DNA of 64,000 bases, from the NCBI GenBank assembly GCA_002937505.1, contig PTJY01000003.1:128060-192059 (forward strand), read 5' to 3'. The first letter of the stretch is position 1, and each line of letters opens with the position of its first letter. This document shows positions 32,576 to 51,979 of this stretch, in pieces. The notes beneath the pieces are model-generated. The model searched no databases. It saw nothing but the letters and a program-made list of their open reading frames with translations, and was not told the origin of the DNA. Made by a program: the position numbers and the translations under genes. The stretch comes from Alphaproteobacteria bacterium MarineAlpha12_Bin1 (GTDB lineage Bacteria; Pseudomonadota; Alphaproteobacteria; UBA6615).

Positions 32576-33661
32576 TTACTGAGGTATTTTCCCCTCAACT
32601 CCCTGTACATAGAAGTTCATACCGAGAAGCATTCCGTCCGAAGCAACTTTTCCTGCTGGCACAACAATCTTTCCTGATTGATCTTTGATAGGCCCTGTAA
32701 AAGCATGCACTGATCCGTCAATTATACCTATCCGTGCCTTTTCAGCCATTGCAACCACGTCTTTGGGGATTGCTTTGTTATATGGCGCCATAAGCACCAT
32801 ACCAGATTTAAACCCTCCCCAAGTGTCACCAGATTTCCAGGTCCCATCTAATACGGCCTGGGTTCTCGAAATATAATATGGAGCCCAATTATCAATAATG
32901 GCAGTAAGATGAGCTTTAGGGCCAAATGCAGTCATGTCAGAGGCTTGACCTAACGCCCAAACACCTCTTTTTTCCGCAACTTGAACTGGTGCAGGTGAAT
33001 CCGTATGTTGCATGATGATATCAGCGCCTTGGTCCACAAGGGTTTTAGCAGCATCAGCTTCTTTTCCAGGATCAAACCAAGTTGAAACCCAAACCACCTT
33101 AATTTTCACCTTGGGATTTACCGACCTTGCTGCTATCGATACAGCATTAATTCCTCGAATTACCTCAGGGATAGGAAACGAAGCAACATAGCCAATCACA
33201 TTGGACTTAGTCATTTTCCCAGCTATTAGGCCTGCCACATGACGACCTTCGTAAAAACGACCGGAATAGGTAGAGACATTTTTATCTCTTTTAAAGCCTG
33301 TCGCATGTTCAAAATGCACTTTCGGATGCTTTTTAGCTACTTTTAAAGTAGGATTCATATAGCCAAAAGACGTAGTGAAGATCAGATTATGACCTGTACT
33401 GGCAAGCTGGTTAATAACCCTCTGAGCGTCGGCACCTTCTGGTACCTTCTCGACATAGGTGGTTTTGACTTTTCCACCAAATTTCTTTTCGACAGCAAGT
33501 CTTCCTTCATTATGTTCATATGACCAACCATGATCGCCAATTGGTCCGACATAAACAAAACCAACTTTTAGCGGATCAGCCTGAGAAACTGTTATGGCCG
33601 ATAGAAATAAAAACGAAACTGCTGAAATAGCTAGAGATGTTAGTATACTTGGTAACTTCAT
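32576..33661 (-). CDS. BMP-family (PnrA/Med-like) ABC substrate-binding lipoprotein, purine-nucleoside type
   Basis: Signal peptide. LKVGFVYVGPIGDHGWSYEHNEG is typical of basic membrane protein family substrate-binding proteins. Confidence 0.8.
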   Translation of the reverse strand: MKLPSILTSLAISAVSFLFLSAITVSQADPLKVGFVYVGPIGDHGWSYEHNEGRLAVEKKFGGKVKTTYVEKVPEGADAQRVINQLASTGHNLIFTTSFGYMNPTLKVAKKHPKVHFEHATGFKRDKNVSTYSGRFYEGRHVAGLIAGKMTKSNVIGYVASFPIPEVIRGINAVSIAARSVNPKVKIKVVWVSTWFDPGKEADAAKTLVDQGADIIMQHTDSPAPVQVAEKRGVWALGQASDMTAFGPKAHLTAIIDNWAPYYISRTQAVLDGTWKSGDTWGGFKSGMVLMAPYNKAIPKDVVAMAEKARIGIIDGSVHAFTGPIKDQSGKIVVPAGKVASDGMLLGMNFYVQGVEGKIPQ

Positions 33662-33702
33662 AATACCCCTCCTTTGAATACCTTAGTTTACCAACATTCA
33701 TT

Positions 33703-33747
33703 AAAAAACTGTCCTCAAGGTTCAGGTGAGTTTGCTGAAACCCGAGG
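33703..33747 (-). terminator. intra-operon hairpin plus T-run between permease and substrate-binding-protein genes
   Basis: On the minus strand: CCTCGGGTTTCAGC-aaactca-CCTGAACCTTGAGG then acagTTTTTT. Could act as an attenuator or terminator setting permease-to-binding-protein stoichiometry. Confidence 0.35.
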
Positions 33748-33805
33748 ATAAGCCTTAATATTTACCTCTTGATATTTATCTAATTTTCTTAATTAGCATT
33801 TATGC

Positions 33806-34732
33806 TCATCCGTGGGGGTGAAAGCTCTTACCAAGACAAGCGGGAGCGCTAATCCTGATCCGAAAATCATCTCTAGATATCATAACTAGCACTATAATAG
33901 TTACTAAATATGGCAACATAGATAAAACCTGAGATGGCACATCGACCCCGAAGCCCTGCGCATGTAACTGTATAATAGTGATACCGCCAAATAGATAAGC
34001 TCCAAAAAAAGCCCTCCAAGGCCTCCATGAAGCAAAGACCACTAACGCCAAAGCAATCCAACCTCTACCAGCAGACATATTTTCAACCCAAAGTGGTGTA
34101 TGAGCCAAAGATAAGTACGCCCCCCCTAATCCTGCCATAGCGCCACCAAAAAGTATTGCAAATAAACGTATAAGGGTTACAGAAAATCCAATAGAGTGAG
34201 CAGCATCATGATTTTCACCGACAGCACGTAATGCCAACCCCCAACGCGTACGCATCAAAAACCACGTTACCAGTATGGCCATAAAAACAGACAAATAGAC
34301 CATAAAATCCTGCTCAAACACCAGTGGACCAAGGCCCCGAATATCACTAAAGAAAGGCGTGTTAAGCTTAGGTAAGCTGTTTATTGTCTGACCTACAAAC
34401 TCATGACCAAGCAATGCACTTAAGCCAACGCCAAATATTGTCAATGCTAGGCCAGTCGCAACCTGATTCGAGTATAAATATAAAGTTAGAAATCCAAAAA
34501 TAAACGACAATAATAACCCTGAGAAAGCCCCAGCAATTACTCCAATATAGGGATTTCCTGTCTTAACGGTAACTGCAAAAGCACCAACAGCACCTACAAT
34601 CATCATCCCTTCAACACCGAGATTTAAAACCCCTGATTTTTCAACAACTATCTCTCCTATTGCTGCAAACACCAGTGGGGTAGAAGCTGTTATAATTGTT
34701 AATAATGCTGGAATAACGAACTCAATTATCAT
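33806..34732 (-). CDS. ABC transporter permease (BMP-associated)
   Basis: 308-aa polytopic membrane protein adjacent to the second permease and the ATPase. Confidence 0.75.
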   Translation of the reverse strand: MIIEFVIPALLTIITASTPLVFAAIGEIVVEKSGVLNLGVEGMMIVGAVGAFAVTVKTGNPYIGVIAGAFSGLLLSFIFGFLTLYLYSNQVATGLALTIFGVGLSALLGHEFVGQTINSLPKLNTPFFSDIRGLGPLVFEQDFMVYLSVFMAILVTWFLMRTRWGLALRAVGENHDAAHSIGFSVTLIRLFAILFGGAMAGLGGAYLSLAHTPLWVENMSAGRGWIALALVVFASWRPWRAFFGAYLFGGITIIQLHAQGFGVDVPSQVLSMLPYLVTIIVLVMISRDDFRIRISAPACLGKSFHPHG

Positions 34733-34753
34733 TAGTCAGTATCCGTAAGCCCC

Positions 34754-35809
34754 TCAATTTATCTTTACACGATAACGAATTAAAACATCACTCGCTAAAA
34801 GAAAAAAAAGTAACATACCCTGAAAAACCCCAGTAACAGCACTAGGAAGATTCATTGTTATTTGTGCTGAATCTCCTCCAAGATACGTGAGCGCCATCAA
34901 AATTCCTGAAAATATAACTCCAATAGGATGCAAACGACCCAAAAAAGCAACAATGATTGCGGTAAAACCGTAACCCGGAGAAATAACTGGAACAATCTGT
35001 CCTATAGGGCCCGCAACCTCTATAACTCCAGCTAAACCAGCAGTACCGCCACTTATCATTAACGCAAACCAAATCAATCTCTTTTGTTTGAAACCGGCAA
35101 AACTAGCTGCAGCAGGTGCAAGCCCTACCACTCTTATTTGGAAGCCAACAACGTGTTTAAAAATAAACAACCATGCAAAAATCGCCACTCCCAATGCTAT
35201 TAGAAAACCAATATGTAGCCTCGTACCTTCTATTAATAAGGGCATCAAAGCTGAATCATGAAACAATCTAGATTCAGGAAAATTAAATCCATCTGGATCC
35301 CTCAATGGGCCGTGTATCAGATAACTCAGTATTAAAAGCCCTACATATGTTAGCATCAAACTAGTTAAAATTTCATTTGTATTAAATCGTGTTTTAAGCA
35401 GAGCAGGAATTGCTGCCCAAATCATACCTCCAAAAGTCCCGGCTATAAGCATTGCTGGAATCAAAAATGGGGTTTCAAATTCATAAAAAGCTAATGCGAG
35501 CCCTCCACCAAACAAAGCCCCTATTGTAAGTTGTCCTTCAGCTCCAATGTTCCAAACATTAGCCTGGAAGCCAATTGAGAGCCCTATAGCAATTAATATT
35601 AGGGGAGCAGCTTTCACTAACAATTCTGCAATTCCATCCAAAGTTGAAATGGGTTCAATGAAGAAAGCGTCTAATGCCTGTAGTGGGTCTGTTCCCAACA
35701 GCCTAAACATAACCATTCCAGCCAATAAAGTAAGAAGAACTGCTATTATTGGCGACTGATAAATCATCACCCGCGAAGGCACGGCCCGGGGTTCTAACTT
35801 AAATACCAT
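34754..35809 (-). CDS. ABC transporter permease (BMP-associated)
   Basis: 351-aa polytopic membrane protein. 11-nt overlap with the ATPase gene. Confidence 0.75.
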   Translation of the reverse strand: MVFKLEPRAVPSRVMIYQSPIIAVLLTLLAGMVMFRLLGTDPLQALDAFFIEPISTLDGIAELLVKAAPLILIAIGLSIGFQANVWNIGAEGQLTIGALFGGGLALAFYEFETPFLIPAMLIAGTFGGMIWAAIPALLKTRFNTNEILTSLMLTYVGLLILSYLIHGPLRDPDGFNFPESRLFHDSALMPLLIEGTRLHIGFLIALGVAIFAWLFIFKHVVGFQIRVVGLAPAAASFAGFKQKRLIWFALMISGGTAGLAGVIEVAGPIGQIVPVISPGYGFTAIIVAFLGRLHPIGVIFSGILMALTYLGGDSAQITMNLPSAVTGVFQGMLLFFLLASDVLIRYRVKIN

Positions 35810-37346
35810 TTAATAAATTATCTTCCTGAGAATTAACAATCACGCCACCCATTAACATTCCCACTTCTTCTAAGGTAATATCTTCTAATTGTTTTGGTGA
35901 AGACAACCTCCCCTCGTAGATAACGCAGATAGTGTCTACTATTTCGAAAAGTTCTTCGAGATCCTGTGATATGACTAAAACAGCTGCACCTTGCTCTGCT
36001 AAATTGATTAAAGATTGTCGAATATACGCTGCCGATCCAGCATCAACGCCCCACGTGGGTTGCATTGCTATTACAATATTTGGATTCTGTATTATCTCTC
36101 TACCAAATATAAATTTCTGCAGGTTTCCTCCTGAAAGACTAGAAGCTAAACTTCTAATACCTGATGTCTTAACGTCATAATTAGTAACTATATTTGATGC
36201 ATATTTATCAGTTTTTAGTTTTCTCAAGAACCCGTTATTAGCCAATTTCATTCTTGTAAAGCCAGAGAGAAATGCATTCTCTGATAAACCCATTTGGGGC
36301 ACTGCTCCATGCCCTAATCTTTCCTCCGGAACAAAAACCATTCCTAGCGAACGACGGTCATTGGGTCCAATATTTCCTACATTTTTTCCAGAAATAACAA
36401 TGCTTTCTGCTTTATTACCTAACTCTTCTCCGCTCAAAACATTCATTAGTTCTCTCTGACCATTTCCTGCAACGCCAGCAACACCTAAAATTTCACCCCC
36501 ACGAACCTCTAAAGAAATATTTTTTAGATCAGTGCCATAACTTTGCTTCGCCCTATAACTAAGATCCTTTAATAAAATTTGTGGTTTGCCAAATTGTGAA
36601 TTCTTTTTTCTAGTTGGTTTTTCTAGGCTTCTCCCCATCATTTTTTCGGCCAAACTTCGAGGGGTCTCATTTTTCGGATTACAGGTATCAACTAAATTAC
36701 CCATCCTTAAAATTGTTGCTGTGTGACATAATTCCTTTATCTCTTGGAGCTTATGACTAATGTATAGTATTGATACTCCATCATTTGATAATCGATTTAA
36801 TGTTTTAAATAGACTCTCTACTTCTTGTGGAGTCAAAACAGAAGTGGGTTCATCCATTATCAATAAACTTGGGTTTTGCAAAAGACATCTCACCACCTCA
36901 ATTCTCTGTCTTTCTCCAACTGATAGTGTGTGCACGTATCTCTGCGGCTCTAAGGGCAATCCATAACGGGAGGAGATTTCTATAATTCTTTCTTTAATGC
37001 CTGCTTTTACTACCTTACTAGAGACTCCTAAAACAATATTTTCTTCAACAGTCATGGCATCAAATAATGAAAAGTGCTGAAAAACCATTCCAATACCCAA
37101 TCTTCTGGCTACATTAGGACTTGTGACTTGGGTTTTCTTACCTTCCCATATTAACGTCCCTGAATCTGCTTTCTGAACACCATAAATACATTTCACTAAC
37201 GTACTTTTACCCGCACCATTCTCCCCCAAAAGAGCGTGTATTTCACCCGGCATAACCTTAAGATTAATATTATTATTCGCTTGAACCCGAGGATAACGTT
37301 TAGTAATTCCTATAAGTTCTAATCTAGGGGTTAAATCCATATCCAC
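35799..37346 (-). CDS. ABC transporter ATP-binding protein with two fused nucleotide-binding domains
   Basis: Walker A GENGAGKST plus a second GVAGNGQ motif. LSGG signature sequences. 515 aa. Confidence 0.85.
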   Translation of the reverse strand: MDMDLTPRLELIGITKRYPRVQANNNINLKVMPGEIHALLGENGAGKSTLVKCIYGVQKADSGTLIWEGKKTQVTSPNVARRLGIGMVFQHFSLFDAMTVEENIVLGVSSKVVKAGIKERIIEISSRYGLPLEPQRYVHTLSVGERQRIEVVRCLLQNPSLLIMDEPTSVLTPQEVESLFKTLNRLSNDGVSILYISHKLQEIKELCHTATILRMGNLVDTCNPKNETPRSLAEKMMGRSLEKPTRKKNSQFGKPQILLKDLSYRAKQSYGTDLKNISLEVRGGEILGVAGVAGNGQRELMNVLSGEELGNKAESIVISGKNVGNIGPNDRRSLGMVFVPEERLGHGAVPQMGLSENAFLSGFTRMKLANNGFLRKLKTDKYASNIVTNYDVKTSGIRSLASSLSGGNLQKFIFGREIIQNPNIVIAMQPTWGVDAGSAAYIRQSLINLAEQGAAVLVISQDLEELFEIVDTICVIYEGRLSSPKQLEDITLEEVGMLMGGVIVNSQEDNLLNGI

Positions 37347-43631: not shown

Positions 43632-43768
43632 AGAAAATAATTTAATATTTCTGTGTTTCATCCACTAAAAATAGTTATATTTACCAATGTTAAAATTAAA
43701 TTATAATCTGACACACCATGCGAAAGCTGGGCCTCATATTTTTTTAAACACCCATCTGAAGAAGCGTG

Positions 43769-45883
43769 ATGGCATCCTCTGTTAGATTTAACAAAACTTC
43801 CACAAATGTAGATGGCATTCTGGGCGGCTCAATGTGGGATGTTCCTAATGACGGAACAATAACATGGGCAGTGCAAGATAGTGAGTCGTTTAGCTGGGGA
43901 GACAACCTTACAGAGTTTAATGAAGTAAGTCGCATATTTGCTGAGTATGATGAGGTCATTGACGTTGATTTTTTCTACAATGGTTGGTTCACATCTGATT
44001 CAGAAAAACCAGCAGATATAGTTATTATTTTCGACAATTTGTCTCAAGAAGGTTTTTCGTCTCAAGTAGCTGGTTATGCAAATTTTCCAGGAACCACGGA
44101 ACAAGGAACCGTAAAATTAAACTTAGAATCAGGAATTCAAAATATATTGAGTCCAGGAAAGTCAGGATATCATGTAGTTATTCACGAGATAGGTCATGCT
44201 CTTGGATTGACTCATCCGCATGATGGAGGCCTATGGGATTGGCCAACGTTTTCTGATCTCGGCATTTCGGCGCAAAATAGCTTATACACAACTGTCATGA
44301 GCTATGAACCTCCAGCTTACAGCTGGACTTACGGGTGGGCTACAACTCCAATGATGTGGGATGTATATGCCCTTCAATTACTTTACGGTGCAGAAGATGA
44401 AACCAGATCCGGGAACGAAAAATATTATCTTTTGGACGATAATATGGCTAATGTTATATGGGATTCTGGTGGAAACGATACCTTATCAGCAGAAAATTCC
44501 GTGTTCAAAAACTGGGTTGATTTAAGGCAAGGGTATTGGAGTGTTGGCTCTCCAGACACAGGCGTTCTAGACGTCACAGGAATTGCTTATAGTACCATAA
44601 TTGAAAACGCGATAGGAAGCAGTCAAAACGATACAATAGTAGGAAATAGCGCAGACAATAATATTGTCGGCGGACTAGGCAATGACCTAATTTCTGGAGA
44701 ACAAGGTAACGATTCATTATTTGGTGGTGAAGGAGATGATGTCATTCATGGAACGTATGGCAACGATGTTATTGACGGAGGCGAAGGAAAAGATATCCTA
44801 ACTTACGCTACTTCCTCAGCTAAAAAAAATATTAACCTTACACTAAACTTGGTTACAGATGACATTACAACAGACACTATTTCTAACATAGAGTGGGTTG
44901 TTGGAACTGCTTACGCAGACACTATTATTGGCGATAACCACGATAACACATTACATGGAGGAGCTGGAGACGACCATATCCTTGGCAATCAAGGCAGTGA
45001 TGTAATTAATGGGAATGAGGGAAATAACACAATAAATGGTGGCGACGGAATTGATATACTTAGTTTTTCTAGTGCCTCCAATTCAGTGGTAGTTAACCTG
45101 AAGAGTGGCAAAGCGTTAAACAGTAATTATACGAATGAAATTTCTAATTTTGAATGGGTTGCAGGTAGCAATTATCAAGATCAAATAATTGGCGATGAAA
45201 ATTCAAACCGCCTAGAGGGTGGAGGTGGCAACGACACAATTGATGGTGGAGCAGGAACGGATACAGTTACCTATAGTGGCTCAATCTCAGAGTATAGTGC
45301 TGTTGAATCAGGATACTCGATCATCATAAGCGACGGTACCGATTCTAGGGACGGAACTGACACCCTTACTTCGATTGAAGCCTTTAGCTTTGGAGGGACG
45401 AGTGCAGTCCTAAGTGACTTACTGAATCCTACAGATGTAGATAACGGCGTTTATCGTTTTTTCAATCTTGGAACAGGGACACACTTTTATTCAGCTAGCC
45501 CCGTTGAACGAAACCACATTATCAACACCTACGATCAATTTAACTATGAAGGTGCCTCCTTTAAGTCAGCAGGTACTGCTAGTGAAAATACAGCTGGTGT
45601 ACATCGTTTCTATAATACAGAACTTGGCACCCACTTATTTACGATGTCAGAGGTAGAAAAATTCCATATTATGGGTAACATGCCTGTTTTCAGTTACGAA
45701 GGTATCGAATATCAGGCGTATACATCACAAATAGATGGATCAATTGCCTTATACAGGTTCTTTAACACTGTAACTGGAGCTCATTTCTTTACCCCCTCTG
45801 AGGTTGAGAGAGACAGTGTTATCGAAAACCTACCTGTCTTTAATTATGAAGGTATTGCCTTTTATGTTGATTTAATTGCCTAA
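43769..45883 (+). CDS. serralysin-family (M10B) zinc metalloprotease with RTX Ca-binding nonapeptide repeats and three C-terminal ~50-aa tandem repeats
   Basis: HEIGHALGLTHPHD zinc motif and TVMSY Met-turn. YALQLLYG as in serralysins. GGxGxD runs (GGLGNDLISGEQGNDSLFGGEGDDVIHGTYGNDVIDGGEGKD ...). No N-terminal signal peptide. C-terminus ends ...FYVDLIA. Start taken at ATG 43769. The ORF track begins at GTG 43766. Confidence 0.8.
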   Translation: MASSVRFNKTSTNVDGILGGSMWDVPNDGTITWAVQDSESFSWGDNLTEFNEVSRIFAEYDEVIDVDFFYNGWFTSDSEKPADIVIIFDNLSQEGFSSQVAGYANFPGTTEQGTVKLNLESGIQNILSPGKSGYHVVIHEIGHALGLTHPHDGGLWDWPTFSDLGISAQNSLYTTVMSYEPPAYSWTYGWATTPMMWDVYALQLLYGAEDETRSGNEKYYLLDDNMANVIWDSGGNDTLSAENSVFKNWVDLRQGYWSVGSPDTGVLDVTGIAYSTIIENAIGSSQNDTIVGNSADNNIVGGLGNDLISGEQGNDSLFGGEGDDVIHGTYGNDVIDGGEGKDILTYATSSAKKNINLTLNLVTDDITTDTISNIEWVVGTAYADTIIGDNHDNTLHGGAGDDHILGNQGSDVINGNEGNNTINGGDGIDILSFSSASNSVVVNLKSGKALNSNYTNEISNFEWVAGSNYQDQIIGDENSNRLEGGGGNDTIDGGAGTDTVTYSGSISEYSAVESGYSIIISDGTDSRDGTDTLTSIEAFSFGGTSAVLSDLLNPTDVDNGVYRFFNLGTGTHFYSASPVERNHIINTYDQFNYEGASFKSAGTASENTAGVHRFYNTELGTHLFTMSEVEKFHIMGNMPVFSYEGIEYQAYTSQIDGSIALYRFFNTVTGAHFFTPSEVERDSVIENLPVFNYEGIAFYVDLIA
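45446..45883 (+). repeat. three tandem 150-bp (50-aa) coding repeats, consensus YRFFNxxTGxHFxTxSxxExxxIxxNxPxFxYEGIxF
   Basis: Repeat units begin in frame at 45446, 45596 and 45746: GVYRFFNLGTGTHFYSAS..., GVHRFYNTELGTHLFTMS..., ALYRFFNTVTGAHFFTPS.... Confidence 0.75.
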
Positions 45884-45980
45884 GTGTATATACTGTGACG
45901 TATATTCTTATATTCTATAAAAATATTTTTTTTACATTTTTTACTTTTAATTTCATACGATTACGTATATATAATGGCTC

Positions 45981-47153
45981 ATGTCTTCTCCGCTCCGTAT
46001 AATTCGTGAAAAAATGAAGATTACCCAGTCGGAATTAGCAGAACTGATGGGTACTACGCAAGCTACAGTATCAAGAATGGAAGCTGGGCAGTGGGAACCG
46101 AGCGCCTCACAGATTCAGGCGGTTTTAAAAAAATCTAACGAAGAGAGATTGAATCTTTCATTTGATGATTTCGTTTTTTCTAAAAACGAAGAATTATCTA
46201 CTCGCCAAAATGGGAACGACCAAGAAAGGAATTATTTTAGCCATAGGCACCTGTTAGGAATACAAGAACTTTCTCCGCAAGAAATTACTTTTCTATTAGA
46301 CTTGGCCGACGTTTATGCTGAAAAGAATCGTACCATTGATAGAAAACTATCTCTATTAAAAGGAAAAACTGTAATCAATTTGTTCTTTGAAGAATCGACC
46401 CGAACTCGTACCAGCTTTGAATTAGCAAGCAAGCATTTGGGTGCAGATGTTATCAATATAGCTGTTGCTTCTAGCTCAATAAAAAAAGGAGAGACGGTAA
46501 TTGATACAGCGGTTACTTTAAACGCTATGCATGCGGACGCTCTAGTAGTTCGTCATCCTCATGCTGGAGCTGTGCAATTATTATCTGAAAAGGTTAACTG
46601 CTCAGTCATAAATGGCGGCGATGGGAGTCATGAGCACCCTACCCAAGCTCTATTGGACGCTCTTACAATACGTCGTCGCAAAGGTCACCTACAAGGACTG
46701 CTAGTCGCACTATGCGGGGATGTAGCACACAGTAGGGTTGCACGTTCAAATATTTATTTACTTCAAACAATGGGGGCGCGAGTCCGAGTAATAGCCCCTC
46801 CTACACTTATACCATCTTCCATTGAAAGACTGGGAGTAGAAGTTTTTCACGATATGCGTACCGGACTAGCGGGTTGCGATATAGTCATGATGTTAAGGTT
46901 GCAACGCGAACGCATGAAAGGCTCTTTTGTGCCTTCTGTACACGAATACTTCCATTTCTATGGACTTGATTATGAAAAACTAAGTCACGCAAAGGAAGAC
47001 GCTCTGATAATGCATCCAGGACCAATGAATCGTGGTGTAGAGATTGATTCCGCTGTAGCTGATGATATTGATCGATCAGTGATACACGAGCAGGTAGAAA
47101 TGGGAGTTGCAGTCAGAATGGCTTGCCTAGATGTATTGACCCGAACTATTTGA
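45981..47153 (+). CDS. pyrB: aspartate carbamoyltransferase catalytic subunit carrying an in-frame N-terminal XRE-type helix-turn-helix extension
   Basis: ATCase motifs [13 protein letters not shown] and HPGP. The PyrB core begins near [17 protein letters not shown] (about residue 86). Residues 12-50 ([37 protein letters not shown]) are a classic HTH_XRE domain. No stop codon separates them. Confidence 0.85.
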
Positions 47154-47162
47154 GGTTTTTTA

Positions 47163-48470
47163 ATGGCTTCCAGAGTTGCTTATACAAATACACGAGTAAT
47201 TGATCCCGAATCAAATTCTGATATTCCTGCAAATAACATTGGAGGACTCTTAACTGATGGCCCGTCGATTAGGGCAATCGGTGAAAATATTTTTCAGGAT
47301 GGCGTGCCTGATGGAACTTTGCAAATAGACTGCCGAGGCGCCGTTTTAGCGCCAGGCCTAGTAGATATTCGGGCTGATTTATGCGAACCAGGCGCAGAAC
47401 ATAAAGAAGATTTAGAAAGCGGTAGTCGTGCTGCAGCTGCAGGAGGAGTAACATCTGTAGTGGCCATACCCAATACTCAACCAGTGATCGATGAAGTCTC
47501 AGTTCTAGAGTTTATAGCTCGCCGTGCTAGAGAAGTTAAACTGATAAAAGTATTCGCCCACGCAACAGTAACCAAGGGTGGAAATAGTGATGAGTTAGTC
47601 GAAATGGGACTCTTAAAGGAAGCTGGAGCTATTTCATTCACTGATGGCTTGAGAACAGTAACTAATGCGAAAGTCTTGTTGCGAGCTCTCAAATATGCAC
47701 AAGCATACAATGGAATAATCATGCAGCACCCTGAAGAACAAATGCTATCACAAGGGGGTGTAATGCAGTCTGGAGAACTATCGACAAGGCTTGGACTGCC
47801 TGGCATTCCAGCGGAATCTGAAATAATAATGCTCCAAAGAGACCTTAAATTAGTGGAAATGACTGGAGGTCGTTATCACGCAGCGCATATCTCTACTGCT
47901 CCTTCGGTTCAGGCAATCGCCAACGCAAAATCGATTGGACTGAACGTAACCTGCGATACGTCTCCACCTTACTTCGCCCTAAACGAACTAGCAGTAGGAG
48001 AATATCGCACATTTGCCAAACTCCTCCCTCCTCTTAGAAGCGAGGAGGATCGAAAAGCAATTATAGAAGGCCTCTCCAACGGAATAATTGATTGTATTGC
48101 TTCTGATCATGCCCCACAAGACCAGGACTCGAAACGACTACCCTTCGAACAAGCAGAATTTGGAGCAGTTGGGTTGGAGACTTTGTTACAGTTAACTCTA
48201 GAGCTTTACCACAATAACCATCTTGAATTAATCGATGCATTATCATTAGTGACCAATAAACCAGCGAGTATATTGGGCCTGCCAGTTGGCAAATTAACCG
48301 TCGGTGGCCCAGCCGACTTAATTATATTTGAGCCTGACTCACCCAGAAAAATAGAACCACAGACATTTGTCTCAAAGTCTAAAAATTCTCCTTTTGATGG
48401 TAGATTGGTACAGGGACATCTTTTAAGCACTGTAGTAGATGGACGAACAATTTACTCAGCAGTAACGTAG
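47163..48470 (+). CDS. pyrC: dihydroorotase-like protein, probably non-catalytic PyrC'
   Basis: Class I DHOase-like amidohydrolase (435 aa). The canonical DxHxH metal motif is replaced by GLVDIRADLCEPG. SDHAP is retained. 9 nt after pyrB. Confidence 0.7.
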   Translation: MASRVAYTNTRVIDPESNSDIPANNIGGLLTDGPSIRAIGENIFQDGVPDGTLQIDCRGAVLAPGLVDIRADLCEPGAEHKEDLESGSRAAAAGGVTSVVAIPNTQPVIDEVSVLEFIARRAREVKLIKVFAHATVTKGGNSDELVEMGLLKEAGAISFTDGLRTVTNAKVLLRALKYAQAYNGIIMQHPEEQMLSQGGVMQSGELSTRLGLPGIPAESEIIMLQRDLKLVEMTGGRYHAAHISTAPSVQAIANAKSIGLNVTCDTSPPYFALNELAVGEYRTFAKLLPPLRSEEDRKAIIEGLSNGIIDCIASDHAPQDQDSKRLPFEQAEFGAVGLETLLQLTLELYHNNHLELIDALSLVTNKPASILGLPVGKLTVGGPADLIIFEPDSPRKIEPQTFVSKSKNSPFDGRLVQGHLLSTVVDGRTIYSAVT

Positions 48471-48489: not shown

Positions 48490-49182
48490 ATGGAAGACGG
48501 GGCAACCCCTATTATCTTTTTCCTGGGAGTTATTCAGTCAACTTTGAACTTACCTGACTGGAAAAGCATAATCTATGATTGGCAAATATTTGTCCCTATA
48601 TTTGTCGTTGGTTACATTATTGGCTCAATACCTTTTGGGCTAATTACGACAAAGTTATCTGGGCTAGGAGACATTCGAAAGATAGGCTCAGGTAATATCG
48701 GAGCTACCAATGTTCTACGAACTGGGAAAGTTGGCTTAGCATTATTGACTTTATTGCTAGATACAACAAAAGGATTTTTAGTAGTTTTTATTTCTCAAAA
48801 ATATTGTGGCCCAGACGCAACTTTTTACGTTTCTCTTTTAGTAGTCCTGGGACATATGTTCCCTATATGGTTAAAACTCCGTGGAGGTAAGGGAGTTGCA
48901 ACTTTTTTTGGAGTACTATTCGCACTAAGCCCAACTTCAGCAATAGTAGTTCTAGCCATATGGATAATAGTAGCTCTAGCTTTTCGCTATTCTTCCCTAG
49001 CCGCTCTAATATCAGTTTCCTTTGCCCCACTATTTGGTCACTTTCTATCTGACCCACAAATAGGTTCCATTTTAACCATTCTTGCCATTTTAATATGGAT
49101 AAGACATATCAACAACTTACGAAACTTATTCAAGGGTAATGAAAGAAAAATAAATGTAAATTTAACTACTCATAATAAATGA
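48490..49182 (+). CDS. plsY: glycerol-3-phosphate acyltransferase PlsY
   Basis: GSGNIGATNVLRTGK signature. The ORF carries a ~25-aa N-terminal extension relative to typical PlsY, so the true start may be downstream at TTG 48541. Confidence 0.8.
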   Translation: MEDGATPIIFFLGVIQSTLNLPDWKSIIYDWQIFVPIFVVGYIIGSIPFGLITTKLSGLGDIRKIGSGNIGATNVLRTGKVGLALLTLLLDTTKGFLVVFISQKYCGPDATFYVSLLVVLGHMFPIWLKLRGGKGVATFFGVLFALSPTSAIVVLAIWIIVALAFRYSSLAALISVSFAPLFGHFLSDPQIGSILTILAILIWIRHINNLRNLFKGNERKINVNLTTHNK

Positions 49183-49399
49183 GTATTAACAAAAAACACA
49201 TGCAAATTTTTCATATTAGGAAACACTGTGGTTGACGAATAAACCGATCAATGCCAATTAATCGGAAATAGAAATAAAACAAGGTATACAAATATATACA
49301 ATTTACAAAAAAAAATGAAACAAAACTTTAGAACAATTAATTTTAAGTTTGCTAGATATGTATTTTTGATGTGTCTAAAACTTACGGATAAAGAAGCAC

Positions 49400-51979
49400 A
49401 TGCATGTAGTAGTTGTAGAGTCACCTTCTAAGGCTAAAACTATAAATAAATATCTTGGGGAAGACTATGTGGTGCTTGCTTCATATGGCCATGTTCGAGA
49501 CCTCCCTGCAAAAGATGGCTCGGTTAAACCTGAGGATAATTTCTCTATGGTCTGGCAGGTGGCCGATAATTCAGAAAAACAATTAAAAGAAATAATAAAG
49601 GCCCTTAAAAAAGCTAATACTCTATATTTGGCAACTGACCCCGATCGTGAAGGAGAGGCAATTTCTTGGCATATTGAAGAAATACTCAAAGAAAGAGGTT
49701 TTTTAGATAAAATCGATGTAAAACGAGTTGTATTCAATGAAATAACAGAGACCGCTGTCAAGGAAGCATTTGTTGAGCCTAGAAAGCTGAATTCAGAATT
49801 AGTCGAAGCATACTTAGCTCGCCGCTGTCTTGACTATCTAGTTGGATTTACACTTTCTCCTGTTCTGTGGCGTAAGTTACCCGGCTCAAGATCAGCAGGT
49901 AGAGTACAATCGGTTGCTTTAAGGCTAATTTGCGAACGCGAAGCTGAAATAGAGGTTTTTAACCCAAAAGAATATTGGACAATTAACGCAACTCTAGAAA
50001 ATGTTAATAAACAAGAGTTCACAGCTCAACTTACTCATCTAAATAATGAAAAGGTTCAACGGTATGACCTAGGCAATCAAGAAGCAGCCAGACAAGCTTG
50101 TGTAGCCATAGAAGAAACGCAATTAAAAATACAGAACGTAGAAAAAAAACGTACCAAAAGAAATCCTCAGCCACCCTTTACGACTTCAACACTACAGCAA
50201 GAAGCCTCAAGAAAATTAAAGTTTAGTGCCACCCATACGATGCGAACAGCGCAGCGATTATACGAAGGTATTGATATTCAAGGAGAAACTGTAGGTTTAA
50301 TAACCTATATGAGAACAGACAGCATAACGCTTAGTCAACAGGCTGTAACAGCAACTCGGGAGTTAATAGATATTGACTATGGGGAGGCTTACCTTCCAGA
50401 CAAACCACGTATTTTTCGAACCAAGGCCAAAAATGCGCAGGAAGCACATGAGGCAATAAGGCCAACTGATGTCCTAAAACGACCAAACAGTTTAAAGAAG
50501 TCATTGGGAAAAGACGAGTTTCTTTTGTATGAATTAATATGGCGCAGAACTGTAGCCTCTTCTATGCACGAGGCAGTAATTGATCGTGTTGCAGTTGATA
50601 TTCAGTCTATTGATAAAAGTATCACATTAAGAGCAAATGGATCGACAATTGCCTTTGACGGATTTCTCAAAATATACAGTGAGGATATAGATGATCCTAT
50701 AATTTCAGGACAAGACAACCCATCGGTCGAAGAGGATGTTGATCGACGATTACCAGAACTCAAAAGCGGTGATCCGGTCGTTAAGAAAGAAGTTGTCCCT
50801 AATCAACATTTTACCCAACCTCCACCAAGATTTACAGAAGCTAGTCTTGTCAAGAAACTAGAAGAATTGGGCATAGGAAGACCTTCAACATATGCCTCAA
50901 CGCTTCAAGTCCTCCAGGACCGAAACTATGTGACATTAGAACGGCGCAGGTTTACGCCTGAGGATAGAGGAAGAATAGTAACCAGCTTTCTAACAAAATT
51001 CTTTAATAAATATGTTGAATATGACTTTACAGCTCAGCTTGAAGAGAAACTTGATGAAGTTTCTGATGGAAGCATTGAGTGGAAAAAAGTGTTAAGAGAA
51101 TTCTGGATAGATTTCGAAAAAGCAGTTGAAGAGACAGGAGAGCTAAGATTGCGCTCCGTTATCGACGCTCTTGACGATGAACTTGGAACACATTTCTTTC
51201 CTGCTCGTGAAGATGGATCGGAGCCCCGAAGTTGCCCGGAATGCAAACAAGGGCGATTAGGCTTAAGATTAGGAAAACACGGTCCCTTTATTGGCTGCAC
51301 CGAGTACCCAACCTGCAAATTCACCCGACCTTTATCAATGAGTCAGTCAGAAGAAAATGACTCTACTCCGGATAAAGTCCTGGGCAATGATACAAAAACA
51401 GGAAAGGAAATTAGTCTCCGCAATGGGCGCTATGGCCTTTACGTTCAATTGGGAACAGATCCAGAAGATAAAGGTGAAGACAAACCAAAGCGTACCGCGA
51501 TTCCGAGGGGAATTGATTTTTCCGAGGTTGATCTCCAAATGGCAATTGGATTACTTGATTTACCAAGGGACATAGGGCTTCACCCAGAGGATAATAATAT
51601 GGTTCAAGCTCATTCAGGGCGCTTTGGACCTTACATTAAACATGGAAAGAACACTGCCTCACTGCCAGAGCCTCGTGATGTGCTCAGTATTGGCTTGAAC
51701 CACGCAATAACCCTCTTGGCTGATAAAAGTAAATCCAGAGGTAGAAGTTCCAGAATCTTAAGAGAGCTTGGATTACACCCAAGCGATGAAAAACTAATAA
51801 CCCTACAAGATGGTAGATATGGACCCTATATTAAACACGGAAAGATCAATGCCAGCGTTCCAAAGAGCTATGATTTAGAGAGTCTTACGTTAGATGAAGC
51901 GATCACATTACTTGCCCAAAAGACTATGAAAAAACAATCTAAATCTAGAAAAAAAACCACTAGAAAGAAAAAGGCCTAG
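49400..51979 (+). CDS. topA: DNA topoisomerase I
   Basis: Toprim N-terminus VVVESPSKAKTI. C-terminal Zn ribbon CPECKQG...CTEYPTCKF. Repeated GRYGPYIKHGK modules. 859 aa. Confidence 0.9.
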   Translation: MHVVVVESPSKAKTINKYLGEDYVVLASYGHVRDLPAKDGSVKPEDNFSMVWQVADNSEKQLKEIIKALKKANTLYLATDPDREGEAISWHIEEILKERGFLDKIDVKRVVFNEITETAVKEAFVEPRKLNSELVEAYLARRCLDYLVGFTLSPVLWRKLPGSRSAGRVQSVALRLICEREAEIEVFNPKEYWTINATLENVNKQEFTAQLTHLNNEKVQRYDLGNQEAARQACVAIEETQLKIQNVEKKRTKRNPQPPFTTSTLQQEASRKLKFSATHTMRTAQRLYEGIDIQGETVGLITYMRTDSITLSQQAVTATRELIDIDYGEAYLPDKPRIFRTKAKNAQEAHEAIRPTDVLKRPNSLKKSLGKDEFLLYELIWRRTVASSMHEAVIDRVAVDIQSIDKSITLRANGSTIAFDGFLKIYSEDIDDPIISGQDNPSVEEDVDRRLPELKSGDPVVKKEVVPNQHFTQPPPRFTEASLVKKLEELGIGRPSTYASTLQVLQDRNYVTLERRRFTPEDRGRIVTSFLTKFFNKYVEYDFTAQLEEKLDEVSDGSIEWKKVLREFWIDFEKAVEETGELRLRSVIDALDDELGTHFFPAREDGSEPRSCPECKQGRLGLRLGKHGPFIGCTEYPTCKFTRPLSMSQSEENDSTPDKVLGNDTKTGKEISLRNGRYGLYVQLGTDPEDKGEDKPKRTAIPRGIDFSEVDLQMAIGLLDLPRDIGLHPEDNNMVQAHSGRFGPYIKHGKNTASLPEPRDVLSIGLNHAITLLADKSKSRGRSSRILRELGLHPSDEKLITLQDGRYGPYIKHGKINASVPKSYDLESLTLDEAITLLAQKTMKKQSKSRKKTTRKKKA

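Follow-up and report, generated by a model that had tools for sequence, protein, structure and literature searches.

The 64,000-nucleotide stretch of Alphaproteobacteria bacterium MarineAlpha12_Bin1 considered here (contig PTJY01000003.1, positions 128,060 to 192,059; hereafter the window) contains a pyrB gene whose product begins with what looks like a DNA-binding domain, which raises the question of whether aspartate carbamoyltransferase (ATCase), an enzyme of pyrimidine biosynthesis, could also regulate its own gene. The first-pass annotation of this DNA had left two readings: a genuine fusion that joins a DNA-binding domain to ATCase and might autoregulate, or a small XRE-type regulator whose stop codon had been lost or mis-sequenced. 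Comparison with related loci supports the former through in-frame conservation in 10 genomes and ~36 protein clusters, monophyly, purifying selection and fusion-specific palindromes. The gene product is a real two-domain protein, an autonomous Cro/XRE-type domain tethered to a housekeeping PyrB, and its gene is laid out as follows.

45981..47153, forward strand: fusion gene of a helix-turn-helix (HTH) domain and PyrB, a single open frame of 390 amino acids (aa) plus stop
45981..46178, forward strand: XRE/Cro-C1-type five-helix DNA-binding domain, residues 1-66, supported by Pfam HTH_3, AlphaFold2 (AF2), Foldseek and the ratio of nonsynonymous to synonymous substitution rates (dN/dS)
46179..46235, forward strand: flexible linker, residues 67-85, with an AF2 predicted local distance difference test (pLDDT) score <50 at residues 67-82 and variable among orthologues
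46236..47150, forward strand: ATCase catalytic chain, residues 86-390, identified by NF002032, TIGR00670 and alignment with Bacillus subtilis ATCase

As the first-pass annotation had stated, neither a stop codon nor an in-frame ATG separates the two halves. The in-frame ATGs of the open reading frame (ORF) encode M1, M12, M23 and M33, all within the HTH domain, and the in-frame TTG at 46149, previously offered as an alternative start, is indeed present and corresponds to Leu57. An XRE-type HTH does run in frame from the ATG at 45981, but the peptide that had been quoted for this position (MKITQ...) begins at the second ATG, 46014. Because orthologues have Leu at the position of this second ATG and share the start M[ST][ST]PL[RK], 45981 was taken as the start codon. 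The linker, first put at ~35 aa, is closer to ~20 aa (residues 67-85), since residues 42-66 form helices 4 and 5 of the HTH domain.

The N-terminal domain scored above the Pfam HTH_3 (PF01381) gathering threshold of 23 bits, matching at residues 5-50 with 38.6 bits when the whole protein was the query and 41.4 bits when only its N-terminal 86 aa were used (E 1e-9 to 1e-10). The AF2 model of the domain alone (pLDDT 87.6) is a five-helix bundle (residues 4-12, 16-23, 27-34, 42-54 and 61-64) with a helix 2-turn-helix 3 unit, and the part beyond the disordered linker is modelled with the normal ATCase fold. The domain ends in a conserved motif, G.DLS.DDF. Foldseek matched it to CylR2, the N-terminal domain of P22 c2 on DNA, CapH, controller C-proteins of restriction-modification systems, ClgR and SinR (TM 0.6-0.7, probability ~1.0), and the nearest structures were small, dimeric repressors that bind operators. 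Its five-helix fold and its length of ~66 aa recur in CylR2, the N-terminal domains of P22 c2 and SinR, the C-proteins and ClgR. Small Cro/C1/XRE repressors bind short palindromes overlapping promoters, often as two cooperative sites; in these proteins the domain stands alone or is combined with a small oligomerisation or sensor domain, whereas in the window protein it has a large metabolic enzyme covalently linked to it.

On the enzyme side, the protein as a whole exceeded the cut-offs of both PyrB equivalog families (NCBIfam NF002032, 407.4 bits vs 263; TIGR00670, 310.9 bits vs 236.95) and contains both carbamoyltransferase domains (OTCace_N, PF02729, residues 89-231, E 6e-46; OTCace, PF00185, residues 239-385, E 2e-21). 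B. subtilis ATCase (2AT2/3R7D) can be aligned with the core from end to end, and alignments A1 and A3 show no variation in the STRTR, R-H, HPTQ, HSRV, RLQ.ER and HPGP motifs, which occupy residues 139-143 (STRTR), 191-192 (VRH), 217-222 (HEHPTQ), 250-256 (HSRVARS), 305-311 (LRLQRER) and 345-348 (HPGP). As read from these alignments, the catalytic and substrate-binding motifs of PyrB, namely the equivalents of S-T-R-T-R, R105-H, H134-P-T-Q137, R167, R229/Q231 and P266-L267, are all present. The gene also occupies the canonical pyrB position, in the order pyrB-pyrC'-plsY...topA downstream of gatCAB/ruvX, when compared with the non-fused loci L019, L021, L024 and L025.

The join between the halves could in principle be an artefact, with a small XRE gene and pyrB brought together by loss of a stop, frameshifting, misassembly or a miscalled start, and the relatives of the locus bear directly on this. 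The fusion protein is 100% identical to a protein of the NCBI/Tara Oceans metagenome-assembled genome (MAG) MarineAlpha12_Bin1, and a protein search with the full-length query returned ~36 further protein clusters of 390-426 aa containing PF01381, PF02729 and PF00185. The full-length query was needed, as the N-terminal 100 aa gave only 5 short fragments in the word-index protein search; among the best 150 matches of a 50%-representative protein search, the fused clade was merged into one representative, P0126, which has a different HTH and is discussed below. A scan of species-representative genomes added nine MAGs (L001-L009/L010; Alphaproteobacteria/Rhodospirillaceae) with an HTH that continues directly into PyrB, and the in-frame fusion is present in 10 species-level genomes altogether, in loci with a guanine-plus-cytosine (GC) content of 39-66%. 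A scan of viral contigs for the HTH gave no match.

Among the aligned orthologues the HTH (residues 1-66) is 67-84% identical, while linker residues 67-85 vary freely in length and sequence with insertions and deletions that never break the frame. Differences between HTH codons are distributed over codon positions 1:2:3 as 391:162:1210, and, for comparisons with unsaturated dS, dN/dS is 0.05-0.23; purifying selection acts on the HTH codons. A neighbour-joining tree built on the ATCase core places the 36 fused sequences in a single clade within a background of ordinary PyrBs of 312-346 aa, which suggests that the fusion arose once. Non-fused sister loci were L019, L020, L021, L024 and L025, which represent four genomes, since L019 and L020 have the same protein and identical upstream sequence. 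Their synteny is that of the fused loci (gatCAB, ruvX, ..., pyrB, pyrC', then plsY, dprA and topA as far as the contigs reach), and no small HTH gene was found upstream of pyrB in any of them; an orthologous locus with a separate small HTH gene and a stop before pyrB was thus sought in four non-fused genomes and not found. The lost-stop or sequencing-error reading of the first-pass annotation is rejected on the in-frame conservation and the sister loci. Some database entries do deviate in the direction of an artefact: the fragment P0002, on a 725-bp contig, departs from the fusion after residue 67, and the gene call P0008 begins at M12. Set against an identical architecture across genomes of such different composition, linker changes that always keep the frame, selection on the HTH codons and sister loci that have no separate HTH gene, these leave the artefact with a negligible probability. 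As a separate observation, the P0002 HTH is the same domain at 99% identity and its divergence after residue 67 is complete and falls exactly at the domain/linker boundary, for which chimeric assembly, insertion or strain variation could account.

The fusion might alternatively be a precursor, with cleavage of the linker or an internal start releasing a small repressor and an ordinary PyrB, so that the enzyme itself would not bind DNA. The disordered, protease-accessible linker would suit such processing, as would a 67-aa domain of the same size as complete autonomous repressors such as CylR2. However, neither an in-frame start codon nor a Shine-Dalgarno sequence is conserved in the linker, which is hypervariable and has no conserved cleavage motif, and the fusion has been kept across the whole clade and not re-split, all of which makes a precursor very improbable.

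What the domain may bind is suggested by the DNA immediately upstream of the fusion gene, which contains three elements.

45889..45904, unstranded: distal operator-like palindrome TATACTGTGACGTATA (TATAC-N6-GTATA), an exact match, centre -84.5 from the ATG
45954..45969, unstranded: proximal operator-like palindrome CATACGATTACGTATA, its centre at -19.5 relative to the ATG in 10/10 fused loci
45970..45975, forward strand: TATAAT hexamer, possible -10 element of a leaderless or near-leaderless transcript, with TATATA as its equivalent in relatives

Comparison of the upstream regions of the fused loci brought out a 16-bp palindrome, TATAC-N6-GTATA, with the core TATACG-N4-CGTATA. With <=1 mismatch allowed, each of the ten fused loci has exactly two copies, both upstream of the fusion ATG and centred at -19.5 (proximal) and at -85.5, -84.5 or -74.5 (distal). 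The nine related fused loci contain 18 such sites in 89 kb, all 18 of them upstream of the fusion ATG, where 2.3 would be expected from shuffles; for loci of 61-66% GC the expectation is 0-0.12 palindromes per locus. The sole further match in the window has one mismatch, lies inside pyrC' and is at chance level. In the four non-fused sister genomes, which have the same synteny, no match was found even with 2 mismatches. These palindromes were missed by a repeat search with a minimum length of 12, their arms being 5-9 bp, and were found by dedicated pattern scans.

The proximal site is nearly invariant and is the most conserved upstream block; in the GC-rich relatives it reads TATACGAAAACGTATA and is followed by a third half-site, TATACG (CGTATA running directly into TATACG). 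At the distal site the half-sites are kept and the spacer varies. The centre-to-centre distance is 65-66 bp in every locus except L007, the sole spacing variant, where an 11-bp deletion has reduced it to 55 bp; as this deletion is exactly one helical turn, it fits the prediction of cooperative binding on one face of the DNA. The palindrome pair at the fusion promoter is conserved, fusion-specific, positionally fixed and phase-preserving. The upstream alignment of L002-L009 (A4) shows further conserved AT-rich boxes against a GC-rich intergenic background: AATATTC precedes the distal site, TTATCCCCA follows closely behind it, and the proximal site is preceded by a palindromic AAAAG-N2-CTTTT(AAC). 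These boxes are absent or different in the window and in L001.

With its end 12 nt before the ATG, the proximal site adjoins the TATAAT/TATATA hexamer, whose coordinates in the window had been given correctly at first, and the -10-like element lies 5-7 nt before the ATG in all loci. No conserved Shine-Dalgarno sequence precedes the fusion ATG in the compared loci, unlike pyrC', which has GAGG; because none lies between the -10-like element and the ATG, a leaderless or near-leaderless transcript is plausible. The window also contains a sigma-70-like match, TTGATT-16-TATACT (45867-45894), with a -10 hexamer that is the left half of the distal site.

Leader RNAs are the classical means of controlling pyrimidine operons, and the palindromes could accordingly be read as acting in RNA, as a hairpin of the 5' untranslated region, an attenuator or a translational operator like the pyrBI leaders or PyrR-controlled operons, the more so as the proximal palindrome is able to form a short hairpin (5 pairs in the window). 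The 5' region nevertheless folds no better than its shuffles (z = -0.41; 68/200 shuffles as good), and no Rfam family came near threshold in it; explanations at the RNA level were rejected on these two results. Additionally, the arms are conserved in sequence and not through compensatory change, the distal half-sites are kept around a free spacer, and no terminator-like U-tract is present. A role in RNA is therefore highly unlikely.

Any control at this promoter would probably also extend to the next gene downstream.

47163..48470, forward strand: pyrC', dihydroorotase-like gene, 9 nt downstream of the fusion gene, with its own GAGG Shine-Dalgarno sequence

The pyrC' gene (TIGR00857, 343 bits) is probably co-transcribed with the fusion gene, and its product aligns with the dihydroorotase (DHOase) of the Aquifex DHOase-ATCase complex 3D6N. 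Because it reads DIRAD where the Aquifex DHOase has the metal-binding DIHVH (H61/H63), it is probably non-catalytic and would serve as the PyrC' scaffold of a class-A-type holoenzyme; the later His and Asp ligands are kept. The DIRAD-type substitution is common to fused and non-fused relatives, and a connection between the loss of HxH and the fusion was rejected because the non-fused relatives show the same loss.

On this evidence, the fused PyrB probably represses its own gene through the candidate operators and would be an autoregulating trigger enzyme. In the proposed mechanism, the HTH domains of the oligomeric enzyme would pair up on the two 16-bp palindromes in its own promoter, of which the proximal one abuts or overlaps the only -10-like element and the distal one lies about six helical turns upstream. 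Because the proximal site adjoins this -10-like element and the start codon, occupied sites would be expected to occlude the promoter and to repress pyrB-pyrC', probably cooperatively, and enzyme ligands or the assembly state may modulate DNA binding. More speculatively, a single D3-symmetric (PyrB3)2(PyrC'2)3 particle might bridge both operators, and substrates or nucleotide effectors might alter its affinity for DNA, as with BirA, NadR, PutA and RbkR. Of the features that define a trigger enzyme, an enzyme and a DNA-binding domain in one polypeptide are found here at the level of sequence and predicted structure. As for operators of its own pathway, candidates to which the protein may bind are conserved at its own promoter.

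Several points weigh against autoregulation by the enzyme. The catalytic chains of ATCase are trimeric and the operators two-fold symmetric, which leaves the pairing geometry of the HTH domains unexplained; the source organism is uncultured, and binding of the HTH to the operators is something we infer; and some other regulator could bind the palindromes. A sigma-70 consensus scan located no promoter consistently across the loci, so the statement that the proximal site overlaps the promoter rests on its proximity to the ATG. Additionally, within the 64-kb window and 6-12 kb per related locus, palindrome pairs occur only at the pyrB promoter, and no other de novo pyrimidine gene was found among the annotated window ORFs of >=180 aa. 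The window does contain an operon for a PnrA/Bmp-type nucleoside ABC transporter at 32576-37346 on the reverse strand (binding protein, two permeases and ATPase), in which no TATAC-N6-GTATA site was found.

The mismatch between trimer and dimer symmetry would be accommodated if the HTH, while real, did not act on these palindromes. It might have other DNA targets, or be a protein-protein, assembly or regulatory appendage of the ATCase holoenzyme, comparable to the nucleotide-sensitive N-terminus of class A ATCases, and a separate regulator would then occupy the palindromes. The N-terminal region of the Pseudomonas-type PyrB has been implicated in the response to effectors, which is in keeping with such a role. 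We consider this unlikely, however, as the palindromes are found in 10/10 fused loci and 0/4 non-fused sister genomes, the N-terminal domain makes up a complete unit of the Cro/CylR2 type, canonical recognition helix included, and two other lineages with an HTH-like domain on ATCase each have a palindrome just upstream (that of the Cro-like lineage being unrelated in sequence).

If the fused PyrB does repress its own gene, the arrangement has close functional precedents. Like the window protein, the trigger enzymes BirA, NadR, PutA and RbkR combine an N-terminal DNA-binding domain with a pathway enzyme in one polypeptide and have palindromic sites in the promoter of their own operon; NadR consists of an XRE-type HTH with an NMN (nicotinamide mononucleotide) adenylyltransferase/ribosylnicotinamide kinase. 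The window protein differs from all four in that its enzyme is ATCase, which catalyzes the first committed step of pyrimidine synthesis and for which no regulator of this type was found in the literature, and in that its core is a trimer (a dodecamer with PyrC') and not a ligand-induced dimer. For the archaeal RbkR, tandem sites and autoregulation were predicted by comparative genomics (PMC5397151), as they are here for the window protein.

With respect to symmetry, the D3-symmetric ATCase-PyrC' particle on two operators may have a plausible geometric precedent in ArgR/AhrC. This regulator is hexameric and trimer-based, has its DNA-binding domains on flexible linkers, and binds paired palindromic boxes when loaded with its metabolite. 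Unlike the window protein, ArgR has no catalytic activity and a winged-helix domain, and there is no sequence relationship between the two.

The first of the other two lineages is represented by P0126 (391 aa; L022 1-1263), a canonical PyrB followed by pyrC', plsY and dprA, with an N-terminal domain that is YdaS/Cro-like and not HTH_3. This domain scored 38.9 bits with NF046037 'carph-isopro' (cut-off 38), a family to which the window domain does not belong, being absent among the best 25 of 31 families (weakest listed, 12.8 bits). Its kin are free-standing proteins of 77-103 aa, one of which (77 aa, 64% identical) lies in a phage-like gene cluster, while another adjoins, divergently, the gene for an S24-peptidase repressor, which is the usual position of Cro. 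A word-index search with the P0126 domain returned two prophage Cro-like proteins only, and the C-terminal G.DLS.DDF motif is the only feature common to P0126-type domains and the window domain. The 87 nt available upstream of P0126 contain a different perfect palindrome, AAATTGCG-N5-CGCAATTT, at -60; since it comes from a single low-coverage contig, this case is suggestive only.

The second lineage came to light through a tblastn match in Burkholderia cenocepacia that aligned from query residue 5 and led to the curated NCBI family NF008853/PRK11891 (430 aa; Burkholderia, Caballeronia, Variovorax and Comamonas). Like the window protein, members have an N-terminal extension, of ~90 aa, with a weak HTH_3 match before an ATCase-type core. 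The B. cenocepacia protein (431 aa) scored 898.7 bits with NF008853 and has a sub-threshold HTH_3 match in its first ~35 residues (E 0.004-0.03); its homologues in B. multivorans, Caballeronia and Variovorax are 73-97% identical. As at the window locus, the NF008853 genes are closely preceded by a conserved palindrome, AT-rich and with half-sites of the TATACG type.

L023 3937-3957, and also in L031, L028, L029 and L030: upstream palindromes of NF008853 genes, TATACGC-N3-GCGTATA

This palindrome is close upstream of the gene in Burkholderia (at about -40), Caballeronia and Variovorax, with 1-2 mismatches outside Burkholderia, and stands out as AT-rich within DNA of 59-68% GC; in Comamonas, two direct copies of its right half are found. 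Its half-site spacing is one base pair longer than that of the window palindrome. The NF008853 core is of another ATCase subfamily, the Burkholderia core also matching PRK08192 strongly (458 bits, below the 512-bit cut-off), whereas the window protein is a canonical PyrB at a pyrB-pyrC' locus and is not an NF008853 member (172.8 bits vs a cut-off of 560). BLASTP gave no alignment between the window and Burkholderia N-terminal domains, and for this reason no homology is claimed between them despite the similar half-sites. The similarity of the half-site in the marine clade and in NF008853 is unexplained and is no proof of common descent.

Three lineages are concerned: marine Alphaproteobacteria with an XRE-type HTH, another alphaproteobacterial lineage whose HTH is of the phage-Cro type, and Burkholderiales with NF008853. 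We raise, as a tentative possibility, that ATCase became a metabolite-gated transcription factor independently at least two or three times, with the holoenzyme on palindromes of its own promoter; the D3-symmetric PyrB-PyrC' particle might then bridge two phased operators, with substrate or nucleotide occupancy setting transcription. That the HTH-ATCase arrangement apparently recurs in several lineages suggests a selective advantage. Other long 'ATCases' were also seen among the representative proteins (P0209, P0245, P0198 and P0216), putative fusions with a PyrR-like phosphoribosyltransferase, with RuvX or with a ClpX zinc finger; the RuvX+ATCase entry may be a run-through gene call, ruvX lying one or two genes upstream of pyrB in the window and in related loci.

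The suggestion of the first-pass annotation that such a fusion had not been described is borne out for the searchable literature, in which no paper on an HTH-ATCase was found (searches for HTH-ATCase, PRK11891, 'carph-isopro' and B. cepacia ATCase). It does not extend to curated families, as NF008853/PRK11891 already contains a different HTH-like-ATCase architecture, unremarked and annotated as an enzyme only. The fused proteins themselves are present in databases, where they are named only as enzymes. The operator pair is a new result of the present analysis, and the functional class, trigger enzyme, is already known. ATCase is the paradigm of allosteric, post-translational control, and the control of pyrimidine biosynthesis in Alphaproteobacteria is poorly understood; to our knowledge, no dedicated transcription factor for pyrB is known in this class. 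If autoregulation is confirmed, a DNA-binding ATCase would contribute direct feedback on transcription, exerted by the enzyme itself, and de novo nucleotide synthesis would gain its first trigger enzyme. Through their NF008853 proteins, B. cenocepacia, B. multivorans and Variovorax paradoxus offer culturable organisms in which to test the idea, and the operator is a defined cis-element that could be used to annotate these MAGs and to build synthetic-biology sensors of pyrimidine status.

Two further features of the neighbourhood were noted. The upstream neighbour of the fusion gene (43766-45883) encodes a putative secreted metalloprotease of 705 aa, in which an M10-like HEIGHxxGxxH motif is combined with calcium-binding RTX repeats and, at the C-terminus, a DUF5648 repeat domain. 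It sits between ruvX and pyrB in the window, and in no other relative except, apparently, L001, whose upstream sequence matches the 3' end of the window gene. Downstream, plsY (48490-49182) is followed directly by topA (49400-51979) with no dprA in the intervening 49183-49399; dprA lies between plsY and topA in L019/L020 and L021, the non-fused relatives that reach that far, and follows plsY in L025 and L022.

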